From contig JAZRLA010000008.1 of NCBI GenBank assembly GCA_045646605.1, positions 128,931 to 192,930 on the forward strand: 64,000 bases of DNA. The letters run 5' to 3'. The position numbers were made by a program, and so were the translations under genes. Below, in pieces: positions 6,822 through 16,313 of the stretch (position 1 is the first letter of the stretch; each line of letters starts with the position of its first letter). Below the pieces are notes generated by a model. That model saw nothing but the letters and a program-made list of their open reading frames with translations. It searched no databases and was not told the origin of the DNA. Source of the stretch: Candidatus Enterousia sp. (GTDB lineage: Bacteria; Pseudomonadota; Alphaproteobacteria; Rs-D84).

Positions 6822-7223
6822 ATGACCGATCAAGATATTTTAAAATTTGTGAACAAGATAGATCGTTTCGAAGACGGTGCTAACTATATGAATGTTTATT
6901 TTAAACCGAAATCGGGCGATGATATTAAAAGTTTGACCCAATCTTTCATAGATTTGGGCGTAACCAATATTGTTGATTCTAGGAATTCTGTGGTGAATGG
7001 TACAAATGTAGCAGAGATCAAATTTGTATTGAGCTATAGGTATTCTAAACAAGGAAAAATTATAGATGATTTAATGGTAAAGCATGCGCGTATAAAGGCA
7101 TGGGAAGTGTTGCGTAATAATGGTGGTACAAATATGAATGCGGCAGAGGCGGCTTTCTTTGCCACAAAGGGTTATGAAGTGGCCAAGATGAAATCGCAAC
7201 AAACGAGAAGAGCAAAAATCTAA
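6822..7223 (+). CDS. hypothetical protein
   Basis: ORF trimmed to ATG at 6822 (MTDQD), which has RBS aaggag 7 nt upstream. Confidence 0.45.
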   Translation: MTDQDILKFVNKIDRFEDGANYMNVYFKPKSGDDIKSLTQSFIDLGVTNIVDSRNSVVNGTNVAEIKFVLSYRYSKQGKIIDDLMVKHARIKAWEVLRNNGGTNMNAAEAAFFATKGYEVAKMKSQQTRRAKI

Positions 7224-7241
7224 AATTTCTGGTGTGATTTT

Positions 7242-7598
7242 TTGATATTTTTTATGAGGAAAGATATCATAAATTTTATAAATAAAAAATATAATGTAAA
7301 TCCGGAATACCTTTGGCGGCGGTATCCGGATTTTTGTGTGTTTCGGCGCGGCGATAATAGAAAATGGTTCGCGATAATTATGAAAATTCCGCGCGGGAAA
7401 CTTCGACTTTCGGGCGATGGCGCGGTTGATGTGATAAATGTTAAAACCGATAATGTGGAATTCTTTTTGGGTGTGCCGGGAATTTTGCCGGCATATCATA
7501 TGAATAAAGATAATTGGGTGACGGTCATGTTGGACGGAACCGTGCCGGCGACCAATGTCAAAAAATTGATAGAAATGTCGTATGGGTTGGTGGGGTAA
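7242..7598 (+). CDS. MmcQ/YjbR-family protein
   Basis: 118 aa with the pattern YPDF..FRRGDNRKWFAIIM...NKDNWVTVMLDG, typical of the YjbR/MmcQ family. Confidence 0.55.
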   Translation: MIFFMRKDIINFINKKYNVNPEYLWRRYPDFCVFRRGDNRKWFAIIMKIPRGKLRLSGDGAVDVINVKTDNVEFFLGVPGILPAYHMNKDNWVTVMLDGTVPATNVKKLIEMSYGLVG

Positions 7599-7600
7599 AG

Positions 7601-8191
7601 TCAATCCCTTTTCGGTTTGTAAACGATTCGGTTTTGGTTCATGTAATCGCGCAGGACTGATTCGCCATGTTCGGGTTCGATATTGCCGTATACGGTGATA
7701 TTCCGGCGTTTGAATTCGTCCAGCCAATCCGGTTTGAAACCTTCGTCGAATCCGGTTATTGATTCGACGGCCCTGGACGGAACGCCGAAAAATACATGCC
7801 GAATTCCGGACCACATTATTCCGCCCAAACACATGATGCACGGTTCAGCCGTCACATACAGCGACAGGTTGTGTCCCGATAAATCGTATGTGTGCAGTAA
7901 TTCTTCGGCGTCGCGTATGGCGTTCATTTCGGCGTGGTTGTGACTGCAATTCATGGAAACCACGCTGTTTGCGGCGCGTGCGATTTGATTGCCGTCCGCG
8001 TCATAAATCGCGGCTAAGAACGGCCCATGTCCGCGTGCGATATAGTTCGGCAATTCGTCGTATAATTCAGTGATGATTTTTTTTGCGTGCGCAAGTTTGC
8101 GTGCATCGATTTTTTCATTCGCAATTATGTTGTCTGTATTTTGCATTTTTTGCCCCCGTAATCTTTGTGATAATTTTACGATTCGGTGCAT
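7601..8191 (-). CDS. tadA: CMP/dCMP-type zinc deaminase (TadA/GuaD-like) with N-terminal extension
   Basis: Motifs HAEMNAIRDAEE and PCIMCLGGI (H-A-E ... PC..C zinc site). 196 aa. The first ~25 codons plus upstream region are duplicated at 9290-9414. Confidence 0.65.
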   Translation of the reverse strand: MHRIVKLSQRLRGQKMQNTDNIIANEKIDARKLAHAKKIITELYDELPNYIARGHGPFLAAIYDADGNQIARAANSVVSMNCSHNHAEMNAIRDAEELLHTYDLSGHNLSLYVTAEPCIMCLGGIMWSGIRHVFFGVPSRAVESITGFDEGFKPDWLDEFKRRNITVYGNIEPEHGESVLRDYMNQNRIVYKPKRD

Positions 8192-8241
8192 AAAATCGCA
8201 AGTGATTTTGATAAAACCGATTCGGTGATGGGTATTTTTTA
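8118..8241. repeat. 124-bp direct repeat copy A (tadA 5' end plus promoter region)
   Basis: Near-identical to 9290-9414, with 2 differences. Confidence 0.85.
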
Positions 8242-8556
8242 CGAAATATTATGAGTGGTGCGTTGTTTTCGGATGTATTTAGTTGATATCGGTTGTTTTA
8301 TATTGTATAATTTTCTTGAATCCGATGCAAATCGGGTTTGGGGTTGTAGAAAGCCCACTTCATTCGGTGCGAAAGCATCGTAATTGTTTATTTTCGGTGC
8401 TTTTTGCATCGTTTGCCCCCAGCCAGAATGGTTGGGGAGCTGTTGGTGTATATATGAAGGCCACAGAATCAATAATGAAGTGATTTTCTAACTCCCCAAC
8501 CGTCAATTTATTGGCGGTTTTATGTAATAAATATAAAACATTAAAAGGAGAATGTT

Positions 8557-9219
8557 ATGAAAAATAATACTTTGTTTTCAGTAATAGGTTGTGTTTCTGC
8601 TGTTGTTATGTGTGAATCTGCGAAAGCAGGTTCGAATATTAGACCATATATTGGTTTAAATTTTACATATGCGCATGCAAATTTAAATGATGAACTTGGG
8701 GATTTAGCTAGTTATATTTCGGGATATGATTTTGGAACCGATGATTTAATTAACCCTAATACGGTTGGTTTTACTGCTAATATTGGTGCACAGTTTAATA
8801 AATATTTGGGTGCAGAGTTGTTTTTGAATTATACGGCATCAACAGCCGAGGTGTCTTTTTATGATAATTATGCAACAGTAGTTGCAACAATGAAAAACAA
8901 TGGTTCTTCTTTTGGAATTGGCGCGGATGTTATTGGAAGTTTACAAATTTCTGATAGCGATTTTTCTATGTTGGGTTCTATTGGGGGTGGATACTATAAT
9001 TTTAAATTAAAAGTAAATTATGAGGATTATTTGTATAAATATAGTGATAGTGGAAATGAGAAACATTTTGGTTTTCGTTTGGGAATCGGGGGCCAATATG
9101 CATTCACTGATAATTTCGCAGCACGTACACTGGTTCGATATGTCATTATAAATTCTGACGAACAAGATCTTATAAAAGGGATGTTGGATTGGTCGATTGG
9201 TCTAAAATGTACGTTTTAA
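8557..9219 (+). CDS. outer-membrane beta-barrel protein (OmpW/Opa-like, ends in Phe)
   Basis: Signal peptide. Alternating hydrophobic beta-strand pattern. C-terminal ...GLKCTF. RBS aaaaggagaa. Confidence 0.6.
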   Translation: MKNNTLFSVIGCVSAVVMCESAKAGSNIRPYIGLNFTYAHANLNDELGDLASYISGYDFGTDDLINPNTVGFTANIGAQFNKYLGAELFLNYTASTAEVSFYDNYATVVATMKNNGSSFGIGADVIGSLQISDSDFSMLGSIGGGYYNFKLKVNYEDYLYKYSDSGNEKHFGFRLGIGGQYAFTDNFAARTLVRYVIINSDEQDLIKGMLDWSIGLKCTF

Positions 9220-9228
9220 TATTTTTGT

Positions 9229-9258
9229 ACCCGCCGTTCGGCGGGTATAATGTTTTTT
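9229..9258 (+). terminator. putative rho-independent terminator after omp gene
   Basis: Hairpin acccgcc-gttc-ggcgggt followed by a T-run. Confidence 0.45.
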
Positions 9259-9273
9259 CTATGGAAGAGGCGC

Positions 9274-9289
9274 GGGGCGCACGGATTCG
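9274..9289 (-). other. 16-nt exact copy of tRNA-Gln 3' end (att-like direct repeat)
   Basis: ggggcgcacggattcg is identical to 15663-15680, the 3' end of the minus-strand tRNA-Gln, in the same orientation. Confidence 0.6.
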
Positions 9290-9414
9290 TTCGCAATTAT
9301 GTTGTCTGTATTTCGCATTTTTTTGCCCCCGTAATCTTTGTGATAATTTTACGATTCGGTGCATAAAATCGCAAGTGATTTTGATAAAACCGATTCGGTG
9401 ATGGGTATTTTTTA
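9290..9414. repeat. 124-bp direct repeat copy B
   Basis: Matches 8118-8241. Confidence 0.85.
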
Positions 9415-9630
9415 TATAAAAAATATGATTTTTTTACGGGCGATATTTTTTCCTAGGGTAAAAATTTTTTGTTATGTAAAAAAGACAAAAAACCTTAGGA
9501 AAATCAACGGATGCGGCGTGTTTTGTGTGTTGTGATTTTAGGCATAATGAAAAAATATGCTTGTGTCCCATGTATCTGTTTGTTTTTAGGGCGTTTATAT
9601 AAAACTTTTTGTATCTGTGTGTCCCTTTTG

Positions 9631-9660
9631 GGTTATCCGATGCATAAAAATAGGATAACC
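9631..9660. promoter_or_regulatory. perfect 8-bp inverted repeat GGTTATCC-N14-GGATAACC upstream of HTH regulator gene (candidate operator)
   Basis: Palindrome seen directly in the sequence, about 60 nt upstream of the 9720 start. Confidence 0.4.
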
Positions 9661-9719
9661 TAAATTTTCCTGGGAATGAATATAATGTGGACATGGTTAA
9701 CAAACAAAAGGAGATTACC

Positions 9720-9947
9720 ATGACTCATCAAGATATATGGCAAGCAATTGATAATTTCGCTTTTCAGCATAACATGTCCTGTTCAGGATTGGCGAGATTT
9801 TCAGGATTAGATGCAACCACGTTTAACAAGAGCAAACGTTGGTCGAAATATGGTCAACCACGGTGGCCTTCGACAAACAGTATTGCCAAGATATTAAATT
9901 CCACCGGAAAAACTATCGCGGATTTTATAAAATGTATCGGTGAATAA
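9720..9947 (+). CDS. phage CI-like HTH DNA-binding protein (short, 75 aa)
   Basis: RBS aaaaggag 7 nt upstream. Sequence ...FSGLDATTFNKSKRW...STNSIAKILNSTGKTIADF resembles the CI-repressor HTH family. An alternative start exists at 9687. Confidence 0.5.
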   Translation: MTHQDIWQAIDNFAFQHNMSCSGLARFSGLDATTFNKSKRWSKYGQPRWPSTNSIAKILNSTGKTIADFIKCIGE

Positions 9948-9992
9948 AATATTTTTGTTTACAAAGGTATTTGGTCGTGTAGGATACATTGC

Positions 9993-10895
9993 ATGTCAAC
10001 ACTAAAAACAAAAATAATTTTATTGAAAGAATTATTGGCACTAAAAGAGGTTGTTGATAAGGGCAGTATTCAAATCGCCGCGGGTGAAAACGGTATCAAA
10101 AATTCTAATCTGTCGCAAATGATTAGGAATTTAGAACATAGGTTTCATACTAAACTTATCAACAGGGGCGCGAGTGGCAGTTTACCAACGAATTCTGCGC
10201 AACTTATATATAATGATATATGTGCGATAGAAGAAATGCTTGGTAAAATTTCCGAAAATTTTGTCGATATGGATGCGCTGTCTGGGTCTATGTCTATATG
10301 GACCGAAGAAGGTCTGATTGGCAGTTATATTATGAAAGATTTGTCCGAATTCTATGCGAAATATCCAAAGATTCGTTTGGAATTGTTCATGCGCAAAGAA
10401 CCTGATATATCCACAATGGATATTTTAATTATTAAACCGAAATTGCATCCGAATATTCATGGAACGGTTTTGTTTAAGTTTAAAACGCACTTGAAGTTTT
10501 ATGCCAGTAAAAAATATCTTGAATTGCGTGGCGTTCCGAAAAATATAAATGATTTGTTGGAAAATCATGATTTGTGCATGGTTTATCGGTATATGAATTT
10601 GCCGGAATATCAAAGTATTATAAAACGCGCGAAACATTTGAATACTACATCCGATTCGTTGGCGTTGATATACCGGTTGGTTAGTGATGGTGACGGTATC
10701 ACGGTTTTTCCGTCGTGGTTCCAAGAAAGTAATGAAAATCTTGTTTGTTTGGATAAATTAAATTTTGAATATGAAATGGAAACGCAGTGTATTTGTCGCA
10801 CGGAAATCGCGGAATCACCAAAGGTCGGCGCATTCGTAAATTTCTTTATGGATTTCTGCAAGGGCCACCAAGTGCCGATTGATATTTATTTTTGA
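9993..10895 (+). CDS. LysR-family transcriptional regulator
   Basis: N-terminal LysR-type HTH (LKEVVDKGSIQIAAGENGIKNSNLSQMIRNLE..F...L) followed by a ~200-aa substrate-binding domain. Confidence 0.65.
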   Translation: MSTLKTKIILLKELLALKEVVDKGSIQIAAGENGIKNSNLSQMIRNLEHRFHTKLINRGASGSLPTNSAQLIYNDICAIEEMLGKISENFVDMDALSGSMSIWTEEGLIGSYIMKDLSEFYAKYPKIRLELFMRKEPDISTMDILIIKPKLHPNIHGTVLFKFKTHLKFYASKKYLELRGVPKNINDLLENHDLCMVYRYMNLPEYQSIIKRAKHLNTTSDSLALIYRLVSDGDGITVFPSWFQESNENLVCLDKLNFEYEMETQCICRTEIAESPKVGAFVNFFMDFCKGHQVPIDIYF

Positions 10896-11683
10896 TTGCG
10901 GACGGTGGGTGAAATACGTGGTTGTTTTATTTTGATATTGCCATAGTTGTTTTTATACAGATTCTGGGTTTGGGGTGATTTTATAACTTCCAGTGCCCTT
11001 GGTTTTATTTTTAATTGTTCGGGATGTTTTAATCCGTATGATTTTGCTGCATTTATTAGTTTTGTAATAATTTTTAATTCTAAATCATAATATTCAGGAT
11101 TGGCCGGCATATCTGGAATATCAGTCAATAATAATAAAATCAAATCACCAATATTTCTGATTTTTTTAATAGGTCGCAAATCAATTATGTAAAATTTTTT
11201 GGATTTTGGATTTAGTAATAAATTTCCTTCGCTTGGGTCTATGGTGAAATCTGTGTTTGCCAAATGATTCAAATCTTCTATTAGTTTTTTAAATGATTTT
11301 TGTGGCATAGACGCGATAATTTTCATTTTTGTTATGGCTTTTTGTTGTGCAGTCAAAATTTGTCTTGGGGTTAAAGGTGGTTCAACTAAATCATTTGTTG
11401 GAAAACCGTCAGCCTTTTTGCATACCGATAAAACAATTGTTGATTTAGATTCGTCAATTAAATTGTATATAGCTTGACCAAAATTCCTGCGCCCGTGAAC
11501 ATTTTGTGCTTTTTTTGTTTTGTAAACATTGCTTGCCAATTTGTTTCTAAATAGTGCATCATTTTTTATGTGTTTTGGCATACGCAGAACATATTTGCCT
11601 GCATCATACGTGATGGCCTCTGTTCCTTTGCCAATAGGTCTTTGTGATAAATATGTTAAAATTTCTAAATTTGTCAGTTTCAT
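10886..11683 (-). CDS. protein-kinase-fold (PKL) protein, effector-like
   Basis: G-loop-like IGKGTEAITY, Lys in VLRMPK, catalytic-loop-like DPSEGNLLLNP (D..x4..N), metal-binding YIIDL. No clear SD, so start uncertain. Confidence 0.45.
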   Translation of the reverse strand: MKLTNLEILTYLSQRPIGKGTEAITYDAGKYVLRMPKHIKNDALFRNKLASNVYKTKKAQNVHGRRNFGQAIYNLIDESKSTIVLSVCKKADGFPTNDLVEPPLTPRQILTAQQKAITKMKIIASMPQKSFKKLIEDLNHLANTDFTIDPSEGNLLLNPKSKKFYIIDLRPIKKIRNIGDLILLLLTDIPDMPANPEYYDLELKIITKLINAAKSYGLKHPEQLKIKPRALEVIKSPQTQNLYKNNYGNIKIKQPRISPTVRNQK

Positions 11684-11726
11684 GAGGTAATTATAACATG
11701 AGATGTGTGAGTTTCTATGTTTATTT

Positions 11727-11948
11727 TACTCTCTGGAATGCGCACGGGTGCCTCGATACACAATAACAAAAATCAAAAAAATCTCCGCGGGTCGATTTTT
11801 TAAGATTTTTCTAATTGTGTATTCTCGTATTGGTGCTGCGCCCGACGGGCTTGCGCCGATCCGTGCGCCCAGGAATAAATAAAAACACCAAAAAGGGTGT
11901 TTTTGTTTATTCTGGTTGAGGTGTGTGTGCAAAACGCGAGTTGAGATG
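11727..11948 (+). repeat. cassette leader repeat copy 1 (ctctctggaatgcgcacg... long hairpin ... gtgtgtgcaaaacgcgag)
   Basis: About 75% identical in blocks to 13372-13722. Contains a 20-bp-stem hairpin at 11881-11929. Confidence 0.7.
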
Positions 11949-11972
11949 GCACATGTATTTCAAATGAAGCAT

Positions 11973-13130
11973 TTAAAATGCATTACCACCATATTCCTTA
12001 ATAATACTTGCGATATCTTTTGAAACAGCTGTTCCGACAGAGATTCCACCATTCGCATTCGATGTTTCTGGACTGATGGAAATTCCTTTGCCTAACATAT
12101 CTCCAACCAATCCATCGTTTGAACGCACAAATGGTTGAATTGCGGTAGCGATTTGTTTTTCTAAGTTTGGATTTCTAGCATTTGTATAAATAGTTACAGG
12201 GTCATGTCGCGATAATATTTCATCGTAAAAATTCGTTTTGGGAAATTTGTAAGAATTAATATATCTTCCCCCATCTTTAATCAAAAAGTCATCTAAAACT
12301 TTAATTAAATCTTTTGTGACACGAACATTCAGACTGATATGAAAACCATTCGGATTACCAGAATCAATAACAGGGGTTTCTGTATTACCGCCACAAGATC
12401 GGAACCAAGTCCAATTTTGCATTCCATGCATGTTTATATGTCTACCTTGTGGCCATTGTTTAGAACACGATGCTAAAGCATAATCAAAGGCCTCTTCAAA
12501 TTCTTTTTGCGAGACATCTGTATATTCTCCATCTTGCTTGTAACGCAACATCCTGTATATCATATCCTCATCAGTCGGGCTTTCAGACCGAAGGATATTC
12601 AATATCGTTACCGTTGATAAATTTGGATAGTTTTGTTGGATAATTTCAATTAATTTGTTTTCCAGTTTTTCTCGCCCATTTGCAAAAACACTTATTTTAT
12701 CCATAGGTCTGCTGGCTTTTGTGAACCAATAGTACATAGATCCATTTTGCATATAAGGGACCAGCTGAACACCAATTTCAATTAAAGATTTATTCAACTG
12801 TGCCCATTCTTCTTTTGTCAATCGCGAGTCAGGCAAACCTGTTGTTTCGCCAGTGGCCAAAAAATTATTTAAATATTTTTCAAAATTTTTACTAGCACGC
12901 TTACGTAAATCATTAACAGAACCTAATTTTGCAAACCAATAGTATAACACACCTTTATCTGTACCGGGTATCAATACAACACCTTGGGAAGATAACTCTG
13001 TGTTTAATTGTTTCCATTCGGCATCGTTTAATCTTTCTCCAGGCAAACCTACGGTCTCCCCTTTAGTCAAAAAATTACTTAAATATTTTTCAAAACTTTG
13101 GCTGGCACGTTTACGCAAATTGTTATCCAT
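11973..13130 (-). CDS. hypothetical protein with two N-terminal ~66-aa tandem repeats and a ~250-aa C-terminal domain (effector-like)
   Basis: Repeat units NLRKRASQSFEKYLSNFLTKGETVGLP...YYWFAK and DLRKRASKNFEKYLNNFLATGETTGLP...YYWFTK. RBS aaagga. Confidence 0.55.
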   Translation of the reverse strand: MDNNLRKRASQSFEKYLSNFLTKGETVGLPGERLNDAEWKQLNTELSSQGVVLIPGTDKGVLYYWFAKLGSVNDLRKRASKNFEKYLNNFLATGETTGLPDSRLTKEEWAQLNKSLIEIGVQLVPYMQNGSMYYWFTKASRPMDKISVFANGREKLENKLIEIIQQNYPNLSTVTILNILRSESPTDEDMIYRMLRYKQDGEYTDVSQKEFEEAFDYALASCSKQWPQGRHINMHGMQNWTWFRSCGGNTETPVIDSGNPNGFHISLNVRVTKDLIKVLDDFLIKDGGRYINSYKFPKTNFYDEILSRHDPVTIYTNARNPNLEKQIATAIQPFVRSNDGLVGDMLGKGISISPETSNANGGISVGTAVSKDIASIIKEYGGNAF

Positions 13131-13214
13131 AAGAATATCCTTTCTTTACCATGCGTAATTTTATCATGATATATTTGAGAAAACAACTTCTTTTCGCCCA
13201 CACACCACAACCAC

Positions 13215-13236
13215 ATCGAATGAAAATGATACCTAG
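13215..13236 (+). repeat. terminal motif cgcccacacaccacaaccacat, copy 1
   Basis: Also present at 15112-15133. Inverted variants occur at 13697-13722 and 11915-11945. Confidence 0.7.
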
Positions 13237-13290
13237 AGCAAATTTTGATTAGTTTTATAAGCTTATTGTTGGTTCGAATGTTTTTAGTGA

Positions 13291-13352
13291 TTTATAAGTA
13301 GTTCGAAAGCGTGTTTCAAAAGACAAAAAATCGAAATTTTAACTTTCGAACT
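13291..13352. repeat. hairpin element tagttcgaaag...ctttcgaact, copy 1
   Basis: Second copy at 15552-15603. A solitary half-site sits at about 15190. Confidence 0.6.
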
Positions 13353-13371
13353 CATGAAAATTTAATTTTTT

Positions 13372-13722
13372 TTGCTCTCTGGAATGCGCACGAGACCTTG
13401 ATAAACAATAACCAACCGCAGGGCAAAAACTCTATTAAAAATATCCGTTTTTGCGCGGTTGCTAATTGTTCATCTGCGTATTGGGCATGCGCTCTTACGG
13501 GCTCTGACCGATCCGTGCGCGGGGCGCACAGGATTCGCTCGGTCGGCTTTGCCGACACTGCGCGCAACCCGTGACGATTTGGCTACGCTTTGCTTGCCAA
13601 ATCTACTTGGTTTCGAACCCGCAACAAAGTTGCGGATGGCGACCCGTGGCCCCAACCAAAAATTAAACCGGCAAAAGCCGGTTGAATTTTTGGTTGTGGG
13701 GTGTGGGCGAAACGCGAGCTGA
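13372..13722 (+). repeat. cassette leader repeat copy 2 (extended, GC-rich, many hairpins)
   Basis: Shares 5' and 3' blocks with copy 1. Has ~110 extra nt including a palindrome of the tRNA-Gln 3'-end fragment (13511-13537). Confidence 0.7.
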
Positions 13723-13783
13723 ATTATAGTTGCAAAAAATAATACAGCGGAATATAATCACAGTGTTATAAAAAGGATGGAAT

Positions 13784-14392
13784 ATGAAAAAATTTTTTGC
13801 TTTGTTATGTTTCGTTTTATCTGGTTGTGTTTCAGTTGATATGAATAAAGTCATGACTGTAAATGAAACAGATACAGAAAAATTGCCAACATTAGAAACT
13901 GTGTATATTGATGCTACATCAAAAGTACCACAATATTGGGAAGCTGGAGCCAAAGTCGTACAAAGTGGCTCTAATAGGGCAACGTTATTTTATCAACAAA
14001 TCGAAAAAAATCTGACAGACCCATATGGTGATATGCATGGTTATATAGAATTGCGCGATAATACATTTTTAAATGGTCCAGACCCTGTTAAGGTTGGAGA
14101 TGCTTGGGGTGCGATGTCTATAGTAACCCTTGGTGTTTTTAATTTGGTTGGTATGCCGGCGTATCATTTTAAACCATATAGTGAAATTAATGTTCGTGTA
14201 TTAGATAAAACAGGGAAACTTATAAAACGCTACCAAGCTAGTTTTGAAGATTCTGAATATGCAGCATTATATTGGGGGTATTCGTTGGGTGCAGGGGATG
14301 AATTATTGTTAAGAACATATAGAAAAGCACTTGATGATGTTATAGAACAAATGCAAAACGATAAAGAATTTTTATTAAAGAAATTAAAATAA
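13784..14392 (+). CDS. hypothetical lipoprotein (AT-rich cargo gene)
   Basis: Signal peptide with lipobox LSGC. RBS aaggatgg. Markedly AT-rich codon usage. Confidence 0.5.
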   Translation: MKKFFALLCFVLSGCVSVDMNKVMTVNETDTEKLPTLETVYIDATSKVPQYWEAGAKVVQSGSNRATLFYQQIEKNLTDPYGDMHGYIELRDNTFLNGPDPVKVGDAWGAMSIVTLGVFNLVGMPAYHFKPYSEINVRVLDKTGKLIKRYQASFEDSEYAALYWGYSLGAGDELLLRTYRKALDDVIEQMQNDKEFLLKKLK

Positions 14393-14417
14393 TAAGTTTG
14401 ATATTCTTATAATCGGG

Positions 14418-15098
14418 ATGGATGATATATTGTATAATTTTGATAGAGAATATGGCAATATAGTGGAGTATAATGCTAGAGATATATCTTGGTTTCATAT
14501 AGAAAAATTGAATATATTTTATACTGCTATAAATGCCAGTCTAAAAAGTTTGAAGAAAGAATTAAATCGCTTGCCGATATTGAAATCTCCTTTGGAATAT
14601 AGAACAGATTTGTTTAATGAGGTTCTAAATGAAATGAGACAGGCAGCAATAGTTGGCATATTTCATTTATGGTTACATAATTTACAAGAATTTTTGGCTA
14701 TCGGTGGTGATTTTAATAATAACAAAAAAATAAAACTCATCAGTAGTCCAACTGAAACTATTTTAAACTTGTTTAATGAAGATAAAATCTTGCAATCATT
14801 GGTTCCTGTATTAGAAAAATACGGATATTTAGTAAATACGATAAAACATGGAATAGGTCCTTCTTATAAAAAGTTGCAACATTTATATCCAGAATTTTTT
14901 GTGGAACCTGGGGAATACAAAGAAGAGCTTATTTTAGATGGTGAAAGTTATGATTCTACAATAGCTATGCCACCCTATGTTTTACAAAATCATATAGATG
15001 AATTTTACAAAACCGCAAAAAATTTCTGGCAAAATATTCCAGAAAAACTAGTTATAGATTTCACAGAAAAAATACCAAAGCGAGTTATAAAAGCATAA
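14418..15098 (+). CDS. hypothetical protein (AT-rich cargo gene)
   Basis: 226-aa ORF immediately downstream of the lipoprotein gene. No recognisable motif. Confidence 0.45.
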   Translation: MDDILYNFDREYGNIVEYNARDISWFHIEKLNIFYTAINASLKSLKKELNRLPILKSPLEYRTDLFNEVLNEMRQAAIVGIFHLWLHNLQEFLAIGGDFNNNKKIKLISSPTETILNLFNEDKILQSLVPVLEKYGYLVNTIKHGIGPSYKKLQHLYPEFFVEPGEYKEELILDGESYDSTIAMPPYVLQNHIDEFYKTAKNFWQNIPEKLVIDFTEKIPKRVIKA

Positions 15099-15111
15099 AT
15101 TTTATTCGTTT

Positions 15112-15133
15112 CGCCCACACACCACAACCACAT
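15112..15133 (+). repeat. terminal motif cgcccacacaccacaaccacat, copy 2
   Basis: Identical 22-mer to 13215-13236. Confidence 0.7.
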
Positions 15134-15247
15134 TGAATATAAATACTAAATATAGCGGTTTTAGGTTGGTTTTCTTTCGTTTTTATTAGTTCGAAAGTTT
15201 TTGAATGTCTTGATTTTTATAAATTGTATCCGTATACTCCAATTGTG

Positions 15248-15504
15248 CTTGTCAGAGAGTTGGTTCTTTGCTTGAAACACATTATTTTAGTCAGGACAAC
15301 AGATGGCGACAATAATGTTGTTATCGAGTACATGGTGAACTTTAATTCACCTGAATAAAAAGGACTCAAAATGAGTACAATAAAAAGGGCTAGAAGCGCT
15401 GTCAATGGTAGATTCGTACCAATGAAAGTGGCTCAAAAGCAGCCAAAAACTCATGTTGTTGAAACTATAAAGCGGAAGTAAACAACATAATTCTCTCTGA
15501 CAGG
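15248..15504. repeat. miniature element bounded by 12-bp inverted repeats (cttgtcagagag / ctctctgacagg)
   Basis: Arms match 11/12 and lie 233 bp apart. They enclose a 36-codon sORF. Confidence 0.45.
15371..15481 (+). CDS. possible small basic protein (36 aa, MSTIKRARSAVNGRFVPMKVAQKQPKTHVVETIKRK)
   Basis: sORF with RBS-like aaagga. Below the ORF-track cutoff. Speculative. Confidence 0.2.
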   Translation: MSTIKRARSAVNGRFVPMKVAQKQPKTHVVETIKRK

Positions 15505-15551
15505 TGCATTATACCATAAATTATGACAAAAATATACAGTTATTTTTAATA

Positions 15552-15603
15552 GTTCGAAAGTGTTAGTAAGAACGCTGTTTCCCTAAATTAAACTTTCGAA
15601 CTT
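15552..15603. repeat. hairpin element tagttcgaaag...ctttcgaact, copy 2
   Basis: Homolog of 13291-13352. Confidence 0.6.
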
Positions 15604-15621
15604 GCCAAACTCTTGTATTCT

Positions 15622-15652
15622 GAACAAAAAATGCTCTGAAGAGCATTTTGTT
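15622..15652 (-). terminator. terminator of tRNA-Gln (perfect palindrome aaaatgctc-tgaa-gagcatttt)
   Basis: 22-nt palindrome followed on the minus strand by a T-run, directly 3' of the tRNA. Confidence 0.6.
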
Positions 15653-15657
15653 AACTT

Positions 15658-15731
15658 TGGTTGGGGCGCACGGATTCGAACCATGATAAAGAGAACCAAA
15701 ATCTCTTGTCCTACCATTAGACGACACCCCA
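15658..15731 (-). tRNA. tRNA-Gln (anticodon UUG), CCA encoded
   Basis: Manual cloverleaf: acceptor UGGGGUG/CGCCCCA, D-arm, anticodon loop UUUUGGU (UUG), T-arm CAUGG-UUCGAAU-CCGUG, discriminator A, CCA. Resembles E. coli tRNA-Gln. Confidence 0.85.
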
Positions 15732-15863
15732 AAAACAGTGTGGATTATAGTAGTTTTTCGGCTTTTTGCAATAATAAAATAATTTTTGTTATTTTAGGAC
15801 TTGATTTTTAATCGTTAAAAATTATAATGATTGCTGGTTTTAATAAAGCACTAGGGGGTGAAA

Positions 15864-16313
15864 ATGGCTCATAAAGAGTTGGTTTCTTTGATGTGGAAAA
15901 ATATTTTGTCGTTCGCGAAATTGTCTGAACGCATAAATCGTAGTCAAATGTCATTTAATGATTATTCGCGGACACAAATGCAATTGCTGATTCGCCTTTA
16001 TCTTGGTGGGCGGGTGCGGTTAAAGGATTTGGCGGCGCGCGAATTTGTGCCGGCGCCGAATTTATGCACGGCTTTTCGTAAAATGGAACATGATGGTTTG
16101 GTGGTGCGTGCGGTGGACGAAGATGACCGTCGGAATACGTGGTATTCGGTTAGTGAACGCGGGGCACGGGTTGCAAGTGATATTATTGAAATGTTGCACA
16201 ATGCAATTGGGGCTATGTTCAAAGATATTGATAAAAAGGACGAAGAAGAATTGGTTCGGTCGTTCAAATCTATGAATGAAATTTTGGCAAAGATGGAGAA
16301 TAAAAATGCGTAA
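15864..16313 (+). CDS. MarR-family transcriptional regulator
   Basis: Winged-helix MarR pattern. The first gene of the efflux operon. ORF-track start 15858 is GTG. ATG at 15864 has RBS aggggg. Confidence 0.7.
   Translation: MAHKELVSLMWKNILSFAKLSERINRSQMSFNDYSRTQMQLLIRLYLGGRVRLKDLAAREFVPAPNLCTAFRKMEHDGLVVRAVDEDDRRNTWYSVSERGARVASDIIEMLHNAIGAMFKDIDKKDEEELVRSFKSMNEILAKMENKNA

Follow-up and report, generated by a model that had tools for sequence, protein, structure and literature searches.

An array of inverted-repeat cassettes and structured non-coding elements at a tRNA-Gln insertion hotspot in Candidatus Enterousia

Integrons pair the integrase IntI with an attI site, and their attC sites span 57–141 nt and carry RYYYAAC/GTTRRRY cores; pdif modules are built on 28-bp Xer sites, in which two 11-nt arms with partial dyad symmetry surround a 6-nt spacer. 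For islands in tRNA genes in general, as collected by Islander, tyrosine integrases are the usual catalysts (PMC4383910). For the tycheposons of Prochlorococcus, large serine recombinases are reported in 27 of 937 elements, as are successive integrations that push older elements outward and leave degenerate remnants and partial tRNAs behind (10.1101/2020.12.28.424599). Here, we analyzed a 64,000-nt stretch of Candidatus Enterousia sp. (GCA_045646605.1, contig JAZRLA010000008.1, positions 128,931–192,930, forward strand; hereafter “the window”), a member of a group of uncultured gut and rumen alphaproteobacteria with genomes below ~1 Mb (PMC12306168), in which the 3′ end of a tRNA-Gln(UUG) gene anchors an array of small gene units. 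In its behavior, this locus compares with tRNA-linked flexible islands that grow by tandem accretion, and in layout it resembles an integron. From integrons, pdif modules, and mobile insertion cassettes alike, the array departs in a defining feature that was tested.

To begin with the comparative frame, species-representative genomes were scanned with the neighboring TolC-like protein, which returned 80 loci (65–94% identity; given L numbers below), nearly all labelled Candidatus Enterousia or uncultured Alpha-/Proteobacteria from rumen and gut. A degenerate pattern scan for the inverted repeat described below added 22 rumen metagenome contigs, and exact-protein look-ups with MarR, the deaminase, and the outer-membrane protein (OMP) gene returned no contigs. 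The tRNA-Gln(UUG) gene itself (15658–15731, minus strand, CCA encoded), first proposed in an earlier note made from the letters of this DNA alone, was called by both ARAGORN and Rfam (RF00005, 57.7 bits), and the plus-strand sequence of its 3′ end reads TGGTTGGGGCGCAC.... In almost all 80 loci, tRNA-Gln, MarR, TolC, and the remaining efflux operon are collinear, and the gene content 3′ of tRNA-Gln differs in almost every species, its open reading frames (ORFs) being nearly all singleton clusters. In L030, the stop codon of a LysR-family gene is followed by 53 nt with a terminator hairpin, then by the tRNA-Gln 3′ end and MarR, i.e., by an empty site. In more distant species, a tRNA-Glu(CUC) lies beyond tRNA-Gln, across a gap of 95 nt to 5.4 kb. 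Because tRNA-Gln–MarR–TolC is conserved, the genes 3′ of the tRNA are singletons, L030 is empty, and the tRNA-Glu gap is variable, the DNA immediately 3′ of tRNA-Gln(UUG) is marked by this comparison as a genus-wide insertion and recombination hotspot in Candidatus Enterousia. The earlier note had expected both this hotspot, which is borne out by the empty site, the variable contents, and the recombinase genes found at the same end elsewhere, and an empty site in relatives, which does exist in L030, with LysR rather than the deaminase as its left neighbor.

Some loci depart from the usual arrangement. The downstream tRNA-Glu(CUC) was seen in L033–L077 (e.g., L054:9157–9400 and L038:3887–9379), and in L041, L045, L050, L065, L068, and L069 tRNA-Glu alone was found beside MarR. 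The typical tRNA-Gln/MarR/TolC arrangement also occurs in two records titled “Bacteroides fragilis” and “Muribaculaceae bacterium” (L070 and L080), which are probably mis-binned or mislabelled contigs.

On the left, the array is bounded by a helix-turn-helix (HTH) gene (9687–9947) and a LysR-family regulator (9993–10895; Pfam HTH_1, LysR_substrate), both on the plus strand (9687–10895). These two genes hold the same position in at least 12 loci at 81–99% amino acid identity. In the closest relatives (L002, L004, and L006), where the order is YjbR, deaminase (minus), HTH, LysR, ~1.3–2.1 kb of unrelated genes, tRNA-Gln (minus), and MarR, their products are 91–99% identical to those of the window. 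From this synteny and identity it follows that HTH and LysR are conserved flank and not cargo, as the earlier note had it; at least 12 relatives carry them in place with neither the OMP gene nor the tRNA-end copy discussed next. Homology with L002, L003, L006, and L013 ends at the LysR stop codon (10896–10901) and resumes at the tRNA (15656). Judged by these breakpoints and by the empty site, the slot between LysR and the tRNA is filled in the window by a variable array of 4.76 kb (10896–15657; three modules plus scaffolds). The HTH-LysR pair is itself rearranged in some species: in L016 it comes before the deaminase, in L028 LysR is turned around with respect to HTH, and in L067 the whole pair is inverted along with tRNA-Gln, i.e., the hotspot also reshuffles its own flank.

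These boundaries differ from those first proposed, which rested on repeats of the tRNA end. The 16-mer GGGGCGCACGGATTCG, antisense of the T-stem/acceptor part of tRNA-Gln, occurs exactly and in the same orientation at 9274–9289 and 15663–15678, and a one-indel copy with one inserted A (GGGGCGCACAGGATTCG) lies at 13521–13537. All three had been correctly located by the earlier note, which also asked whether such a match could arise by chance: we found no third match in the window at ≤2 mismatches, with 0.05 expected and ≥2 matches in 0 of 100 shuffles. From them, the note had drawn a 6.4-kb island, probably degraded or mobilized in trans, and the model of a single island (9274–15731) has the 16-mers as attL and attR and 13521 as a possible second event. 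The exact, co-oriented pair, its improbability by chance, the position on the 3′ side of the tRNA, and the low G+C of the interval (29–37% from ~8.5 to 16 kb vs 40–48% in flanking DNA) all fit such an island. However, it would enclose HTH and LysR, which are syntenic flank, LysR adjoining the tRNA directly in L030, and its left end belongs elsewhere: the 9274 copy lacks TGGTT, is absent in relatives, and sits at the joint of another insertion with 128-nt repeats, to whose inserted DNA just 12 of its 16 nt belong. We thus regard the single island as highly improbable.

This other insertion (8242–9285, 1.04 kb by these coordinates and 1.17 kb by another count) carries an outer-membrane beta-barrel gene (8557–9219, plus strand; Pfam OMP_b-brl, 2.4e-15) and lies between two copies of a 128-nt direct repeat (8114–8241 and 9286–9414; 96 nt exact) that comprises the deaminase 5′ end and its upstream region. 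The three closest relatives, L002, L004, and L006, have a single repeat copy and no insert. Of the 16-mer at 9274–9289, 12 nt come from the OMP insert and the last four (TTCG) are common to the insert and the recipient deaminase 5′ region, so that the right joint, between GGGGCGCACGGA and TTCGTTCGC, is a 4-nt microhomology joint. The 9274 copy, without the CCA-end bases (TGGTT), lies at this joint and is no island endpoint. It shares with the 13521 copy a GCGC prefix before GGGGCGCAC that is absent from all other aligned copies of element B (the structured element that starts at 13521, see below), which suggests that the two copies are related to each other. In L103, a 50%-identical OMP homologue lies in an inverted-repeat cassette whose neighbors are LysR, an element B, and a partial element A, and OMP genes of this type are therefore array cargo. 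We propose that the donor was a diverged version of this locus: a stretch that began at its deaminase 5′ end, spanned the OMP gene, and stopped where an element B starts would have entered by homologous recombination within the deaminase gene and by an illegitimate event at TTCG, duplicating the 128 nt and leaving the 16-nt relic. A 128-nt duplication together with a microhomology joint is a pattern typical of homology-facilitated illegitimate recombination, and the 9274 copy would accordingly be a truncated relic brought in with the OMP cassette.

Next, we resolved the units of the array by self-comparison and cross-species comparison. Unit 1 (10919–11912) holds an orphan ORF (10886–11683, minus strand), a first copy of element A, and a hairpin (11873–11912); it is partly present in L004 and absent from other relatives, and its left boundary, a TGGTTG at 10919–10924, is tentative. 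Its ORF, to which a kinase fold had been ascribed, matched no family in Pfam, NCBIfam, PADLOC, or PHROGs and no PDB sequence. Cassette 2 (11913–13213, 1301 bp) runs from a left terminal inverted repeat (11913–11940, TGGTTGAGGTGTGTGTGCAAAACGCGAG) to a right one (13186–13213, ending ...CGCCCACACACCACAACCA) around an orphan ORF (11973–13130, minus strand), again with no match to the same four family collections or to PDB sequences. The 385-aa product of this ORF has an N-terminal tandem repeat of ~70 aa (12793–12915 and 13003–13125; 123 nt, 72% identical, 210-nt spacing). Cassette 3 (13691–15130, 1440 bp; repeats at 13691–13718 and 15103–15130, whose 24-nt arms are 96% complementary) carries a lipoprotein ORF (13784–14392) and a second ORF (14418–15098), both on the plus strand, behind a predicted sigma-70-like promoter of its own (13730–13758, TTGCAA-17-TATAAT, score 10/12). 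Searches of PADLOC, PHROGs, and PDB sequences returned no function for the cargo.

Comparison across loci shows that every unit is closed by a copy of one conserved, non-coding scaffold. After the right-hand repeat, this scaffold consists of a C region, two direct and one inverted TTCGAA sites, a promoter-like stretch, optional element A and/or B, a hairpin terminator, and a terminal TGGTTG. Scaffold copy 2 (13214–13690), delimited from internal repeats and a terminator scan, comprises the C region, TTCGAA sites (13263–13284, 13293–13309, and inverted 13341–13353), a second copy of element A, and element B, in whose region the scan placed a bidirectional hairpin (13650–13699); its homologues adjoin the tRNA in many loci. 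Scaffold copy 3 (15131–15657) has the C region, TTCGAA sites (15180–15201, 15543–15564, and inverted 15591–15603), a 363-nt insert, and a terminator (15628–15649), and runs into the tRNA. The insert is flanked by 22-nt direct repeats that both contain TTCGAA sites (15180–15201/15543–15564, 91% identical), encodes a basic 36-aa ORF (15371–15481, MSTIKRARSAVNGRFVPMKVAQKQPKTHVVETIKRK), and lies at the scaffold position occupied by a recombinase gene in L017-type loci. The sole sequence common to the unit junctions is not the 16-mer but TGGTTG, antisense of the terminal CAACCA of the tRNA: at 2 of 4 junctions it forms the outer end of the 24–28-bp inverted repeat, and at the scaffold end it regenerates the CAACCA terminus of the tRNA. 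That insertions are tandem, as the earlier note had suspected, is supported.

Relative to Islander-type islands (PMC4383910), the locus shares the tRNA 3′-end target, an empty site in a relative (L030), and integrase genes that abut the tRNA in some genomes. The tRNA is intact and would have been regenerated by the incoming DNA, and copies of its end lie further out (TGGTTG at unit junctions and a 14–17-nt copy at the start of element B); the 16-mer at 9274 marks no endpoint. It differs in that its units measure 1–2 kb, hold one or two genes, and lack integrases, that the regenerated segment is the last 6–14 nt, that the commonest recombinase is a large serine one, and that cargo is also bracketed by an inverted repeat. 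The window array thus departs from a canonical island in its missing integrase, a feature found at the same site in other species. With tycheposons, the locus shares streamlined genomes, variability beside tRNA genes, outward displacement, and remnants (10.1101/2020.12.28.424599). It carries no tycheposon integrase or replication module, its repeated unit is a non-coding scaffold with structured elements, and inverted-repeat cargo cassettes are not described for tycheposons in the parts of that study drawn on here.

We then evaluated the inverted repeats across loci. Cassettes 2 and 3 are bracketed by TGGTTGTGGTGTGTGGGCGAAACGCGAG and its inverted complement, and the window contains four copies of the repeat (0.00 expected), each with 0–3 mismatches to the consensus over 24 nt. 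The same 28-bp repeat surrounds unrelated cargo, in either orientation, in L008, L009, L013, L016, L027, L028, and L042, among it a BspA-type leucine-rich repeat protein, orphan proteins of 170–580 aa, and other small ORFs. Overall, 57 matches at ≤6/28 mismatches were detected in 1.5 Mb of sequence (~100 loci), vs 0 in shuffled sequence. There are 11–13 complete cassettes of 0.56–1.96 kb with unrelated cargo in either orientation. Within this ~1.5 Mb, no repeat copy lies away from the tRNA-Gln locus: of the 36 matches in loci with the tRNA, all fall 222–4382 nt away on its 3′ side, with ~10 kb covered on the other side, and in the 22 extra rumen contigs, where length suffices, tRNA-Gln lies 0.2–1.2 kb from the repeat. 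One cassette has moved: cassette 3 is 98–99% nucleotide-identical in L027, whose TolC is 78% amino acid-identical, and its presence in both is, on these identities, a recent horizontal exchange. A further related cargo is proximal to the tRNA in L092 and second from it in L042, the order predicted if new units are added at the tRNA end. Judged from a limited literature search, this cassette family appears undescribed.

Terminal inverted repeats of 24–28 bp are a defining feature of non-autonomous transposons, and the modules might be read as mobile insertion cassettes or miniature inverted-repeat transposable elements with passengers, moved by a transposase in trans and preferring the tRNA end as target. 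Conserved terminal repeats around unrelated passengers with no recombinase inside, and the same cassette in two divergent genomes, are consistent with such a reading. Nevertheless, none of the nine cassettes inspected showed a target-site duplication, every copy in the ~100 loci lies at a single locus, no cassette encodes a recombinase or a transposase, and the pattern is absent from viral contigs, all of which makes a transposon origin distinctly unlikely. The viral contigs held neither the inverted repeat nor relatives of the large serine recombinase introduced below and so give no sign that the units are phage-borne.

Three further origins for the repeats were tried and rejected. Tn7-like ends were considered for the resemblance of TGTGGGCG within the repeat to the Tn7 terminus, but the repeat extends outward by another 11 nt, and a 5-bp duplication is lacking. 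As two halves of a serine-integrase attP, the repeats would call for a dyad-symmetric attB that the flanks lack, and recombinase-bearing elements do not carry the repeat. Insertion of scaffolds into an intact 56-bp palindrome is contradicted by the lack of any unsplit palindrome in ~100 loci.

Candidate catalysts for the array were found at the same tRNA end in other species, where larger ORFs abutting tRNA-Gln were scanned with Pfam. A large serine recombinase occurs there in L001, L017, L018, L056, and L078, and probably also in L015; a second kind of serine recombinase occurs in L031 and a tyrosine integrase in L022. The large serine recombinase combines the Resolvase, Recombinase, and Zn-ribbon domains typified by L017 (PF00239, PF07508, and Zn_ribbon_recom PF13408), and its catalytic domain matches the TP901-1 integrase (PDB 3bvp, E = 5e-6). 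It resembles TP901-1-type integrases in this composition and differs in the enclosure of its gene by 119–131-bp inverted repeats in three genomes; none is found in the window. To our knowledge, a tRNA 3′ terminus is not among the targets of large serine integrases. Here, the reading frame continues into the tRNA antisense, which brings the gene into contact with the tRNA terminus. The recombinase of L078 lies in a 4.7-kb element between direct repeats of TGGTTG, and the left flank of this element matches the post-LysR flank of L008 exactly. The scaffold TTCGAA inverted pair also occurs in the 3′ end of the recombinase gene, which the scaffolds of L025, L094, and L095 match at ~79%. No distal tRNA-fragment repeats were found for the integrase-bearing elements of L022, L031, and L017 within the ~9 kb examined.

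The enclosing repeats are perfect and measure 131 bp in L017 (6357–6487 and 8043–8173), 131 bp in L018 (134–264 and 1819–1949), and 119 bp in L001 (1–119 and 1674–1792); their outer ends equal the tRNA terminus (CCAACCA/TGGTTGG), and the right-hand repeat overlaps the last ~40 codons of the recombinase gene. Recombinase and repeats together look like a self-contained invertible or self-targeting module. This raises the question of whether the inverted repeats of the array likewise mark invertible segments, with variability arising from phase-variation- or shufflon-like inversion by a serine invertase plus recombination, and not from integration. The length of the repeats is typical of invertases, they surround whole genes, and cargo occurs in both orientations across loci. 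Against this, cassette 3, the only cargo found twice with complete flanks, is oriented alike in the window and L027, with no orientation polymorphism seen, the three recombinase copies share one direction, and inversion can yield neither differing gene contents nor an empty site. We therefore consider inversion improbable as the source of this variability.

In the window itself, no integrase was found, as the earlier note had said of its proposed island: the ORFs of 7601–16313 have no integrase family match in Pfam or NCBIfam, and a phmmer comparison of the three site-linked recombinases with window ORFs ≥80 aa, less sensitive than a full Pfam scan, returned no homologue. We favor, with slightly better than even confidence, successive capture of units at the tRNA terminus, catalyzed by site-specific recombinases that have since disappeared or that work in trans, and followed by homologous shuffling of scaffolds. 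Specifically, units would have been delivered one by one via site-specific recombination at the tRNA 3′ terminus, the newest lying nearest the tRNA. We infer both the role of the 28-bp repeats and the identity of the catalysts, which would be the recombinase kinds that occupy the same position elsewhere, the main candidate being the TP901-1-like large serine recombinase and the others the second serine recombinase and the tyrosine integrase; the recombinase gene would later have been lost, or would have acted in trans. Repeated scaffolds would then have enabled homologous exchange and reshuffling between strains, and the tRNA-like repeats at 13521 and 9274 would be by-products of this array history.

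Several observations weigh against successive capture. The window lacks a recombinase, and products of excision or circular junctions were not observed. Its weak point is the bracketing of cargo by inverted repeats, which a simple attL/attR model, giving direct repeats, leaves unexplained. The recombinase-bearing elements (L078 and L017 type) lack the 28-bp inverted repeat, so that the link between recombinase and cassettes is circumstantial, and the window scaffold resembles the recombinase gene 3′ end at the motif level only. The junction core is only 6 nt long, and the array contains three further, chance occurrences of TGGTTG, which makes the left boundary of unit 1 weak. Finally, only three cargo types are shared between loci, and the comparative data are metagenome-assembled genomes throughout.

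Another reading dispenses with a dedicated recombinase: DNA uptake would be followed purely by homologous and illegitimate recombination, with conserved flanks and scaffold repeats as crossover substrates. The OMP insertion, with its homologous anchor and 4-nt microhomology joint, is of this kind, homology breakpoints fall within shared repeats, and L027 has a mosaic scaffold in which half of an element A is joined to part of an element B. However, three site-specific recombinase families located exactly at the tRNA terminus elsewhere would be left unexplained, as would the TGGTTG-flanked recombinase element of L078 and a locus-specific inverted repeat, and we judge a purely homologous origin unlikely.

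The scaffolds contain two structured elements, A and B. Element B (13521–13696, plus strand, 176 nt; covariance model R1, 181 bits, E = 3.6e-43) has its sole full copy of the window in scaffold copy 2. The one-indel tRNA copy GGGGCGCACAGGATTCG, for which a coincidental GC hairpin had been considered, is its first 17 nt, and TGGTTG its last 6 nt. In at least 14 loci, element B is a ~180-nt unit directly abutting the tRNA, which starts with the tRNA-end copy TGGTTGGGGCGCAC (extended to GGATTCG in the subtype of the window, L019, and L026) and ends with a hairpin followed by TTTTTGGTTG; it is tandemly doubled in L057, L075, and L033. The covariance model identified 29 full-length copies, all within tRNA-Gln arrays. 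In the consensus, 95.8% of cells are paired and 18 pairs show compensatory changes, exceeding 500 of 500 shuffles and every slid control, and the G-U/A-C balance favors the strand antisense to the tRNA. A tRNA-like or transfer-messenger-RNA-like gene on the tRNA-sense strand was rejected, with no ARAGORN call, unconserved acceptor pairing, and a T-arm-like motif that fails.

Element A (140–147 nt) exists in two variants, in which one stem is AAAATC/GATTTT or AACCGC/GCGGTT. In the window, copy 1 (11729–11868, 140 nt, closing stem GCGCACG/CGTGCGC) and copy 2 (13375–13520, 146 nt, the second sequence variant) are of undecided strand, and copy 2 abuts element B head to head (GATCCGTGCGC against GGGGCGCACAGGATTC). 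The element is 86–98% conserved in at least 15 loci, exclusively in the tRNA-Gln scaffold and between the promoter-like stretch and the terminator, and may be a small RNA gene; in a 19-sequence alignment, 96.5% of cells are paired and 12 pairs show compensatory changes. Rfam 15 gave no match at E ≤ 5 over 11729–11868 and 13375–13649, on element B only a sub-threshold small RNA match over the terminal hairpin (13652–13706, E = 0.42), and at permissive thresholds only sub-threshold terminator-like matches. Judged from Rfam and a limited literature search, both elements appear undescribed.

The array might instead be a previously undescribed, tRNA-anchored, integron-like cassette system with its recombinase in trans, in which A and B take part or regulate; we consider this unlikely, if still plausible. 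A cassette would then consist of a 28-bp repeat, cargo of one or two genes with its own promoter, the inverted repeat, and a ~250-nt scaffold. Once the cassette is circularized, the repeats would close a long imperfect palindrome around the scaffold, and a large serine recombinase would insert it at CAACCA, with A and B, which both start as the target plus strand (GCGCACGG...), serving as functional RNAs or folded single-stranded DNA. The layout resembles that of integrons in its fixed anchor, its one-sided array of single-gene cassettes with unrelated cargo in varied order, its inter-cassette elements bounded by inverted repeats (...CACAACCA/TGGTTGTG...), and a cassette start complementary to the far side of its own recombination or junction element. 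In contrast to integrons, neither IntI nor attI was detected within the array or close to it, a tRNA gene serves as anchor, junction elements measure 220–590 nt, the ends of the repeat (CCACAACCA/TGGTTGTGG) deviate from the core motifs, and at least one cassette appears to have its own promoter. The pdif (XerC/XerD) modules of Acinetobacter plasmids offer a second parallel, with one or two genes without recombinase, inverted 28-bp sites, and alternating orientation along the array, but inspection of the repeat (TGGTTGTGGTG-TGTGGG-CGAAACGCGAG) revealed no 11-6-11 arm symmetry, and the array belongs to one tRNA gene on the chromosome.

Other features of the window concern the left flank. The deaminase (7601–8191), called tadA-like in the earlier note, is of a generic cytidine/deoxycytidylate type and scores far below the TadA cut-off (41.6 bits vs 150), and the CI-like label of the HTH at 9687–9947 has as its sole basis a sub-threshold HTH_26 match (E = 0.0065). 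A 256-aa ORF (7071–7841, minus strand) antisense to the YjbR gene, which overlaps the deaminase gene in another frame, is Arg/His-rich and of low complexity and is almost certainly no gene. Over 1–26000, the plus strand shows a strong and uniform positive G-C skew, with cumulative skew climbing throughout, and it dips only within the array (12000–13500), where the cargo gene is on the minus strand.

Taken together, the core idea of the earlier note, an integration hotspot without integrase, holds; the boundaries it drew and its interpretation of the repeats do not. For genome scans, the lesson is that a repeat of a tRNA end can be statistically real and yet represent a relic at a secondary recombination joint, and not an island boundary. 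A tRNA hotspot is in itself ordinary; notable here are the way the cassettes are built, the occurrence of a serine recombinase at the end of a tRNA gene, and the presence of two covarying non-coding elements, A and B, in a sub-1-Mb genome. The locus offers a large serine recombinase with a short, defined natural target (the tRNA terminus), a recombinase-less cassette family with a conserved 28-bp inverted repeat found only at the tRNA-Gln target, and two covarying structured elements of 140–180 nt without Rfam match. In reduced genomes such as these, adaptation may proceed to a large extent through one such locus, at which orphan genes, often of surface type, are turned over in nearly every species; the tRNA-linked islands of Prochlorococcus offer a parallel.

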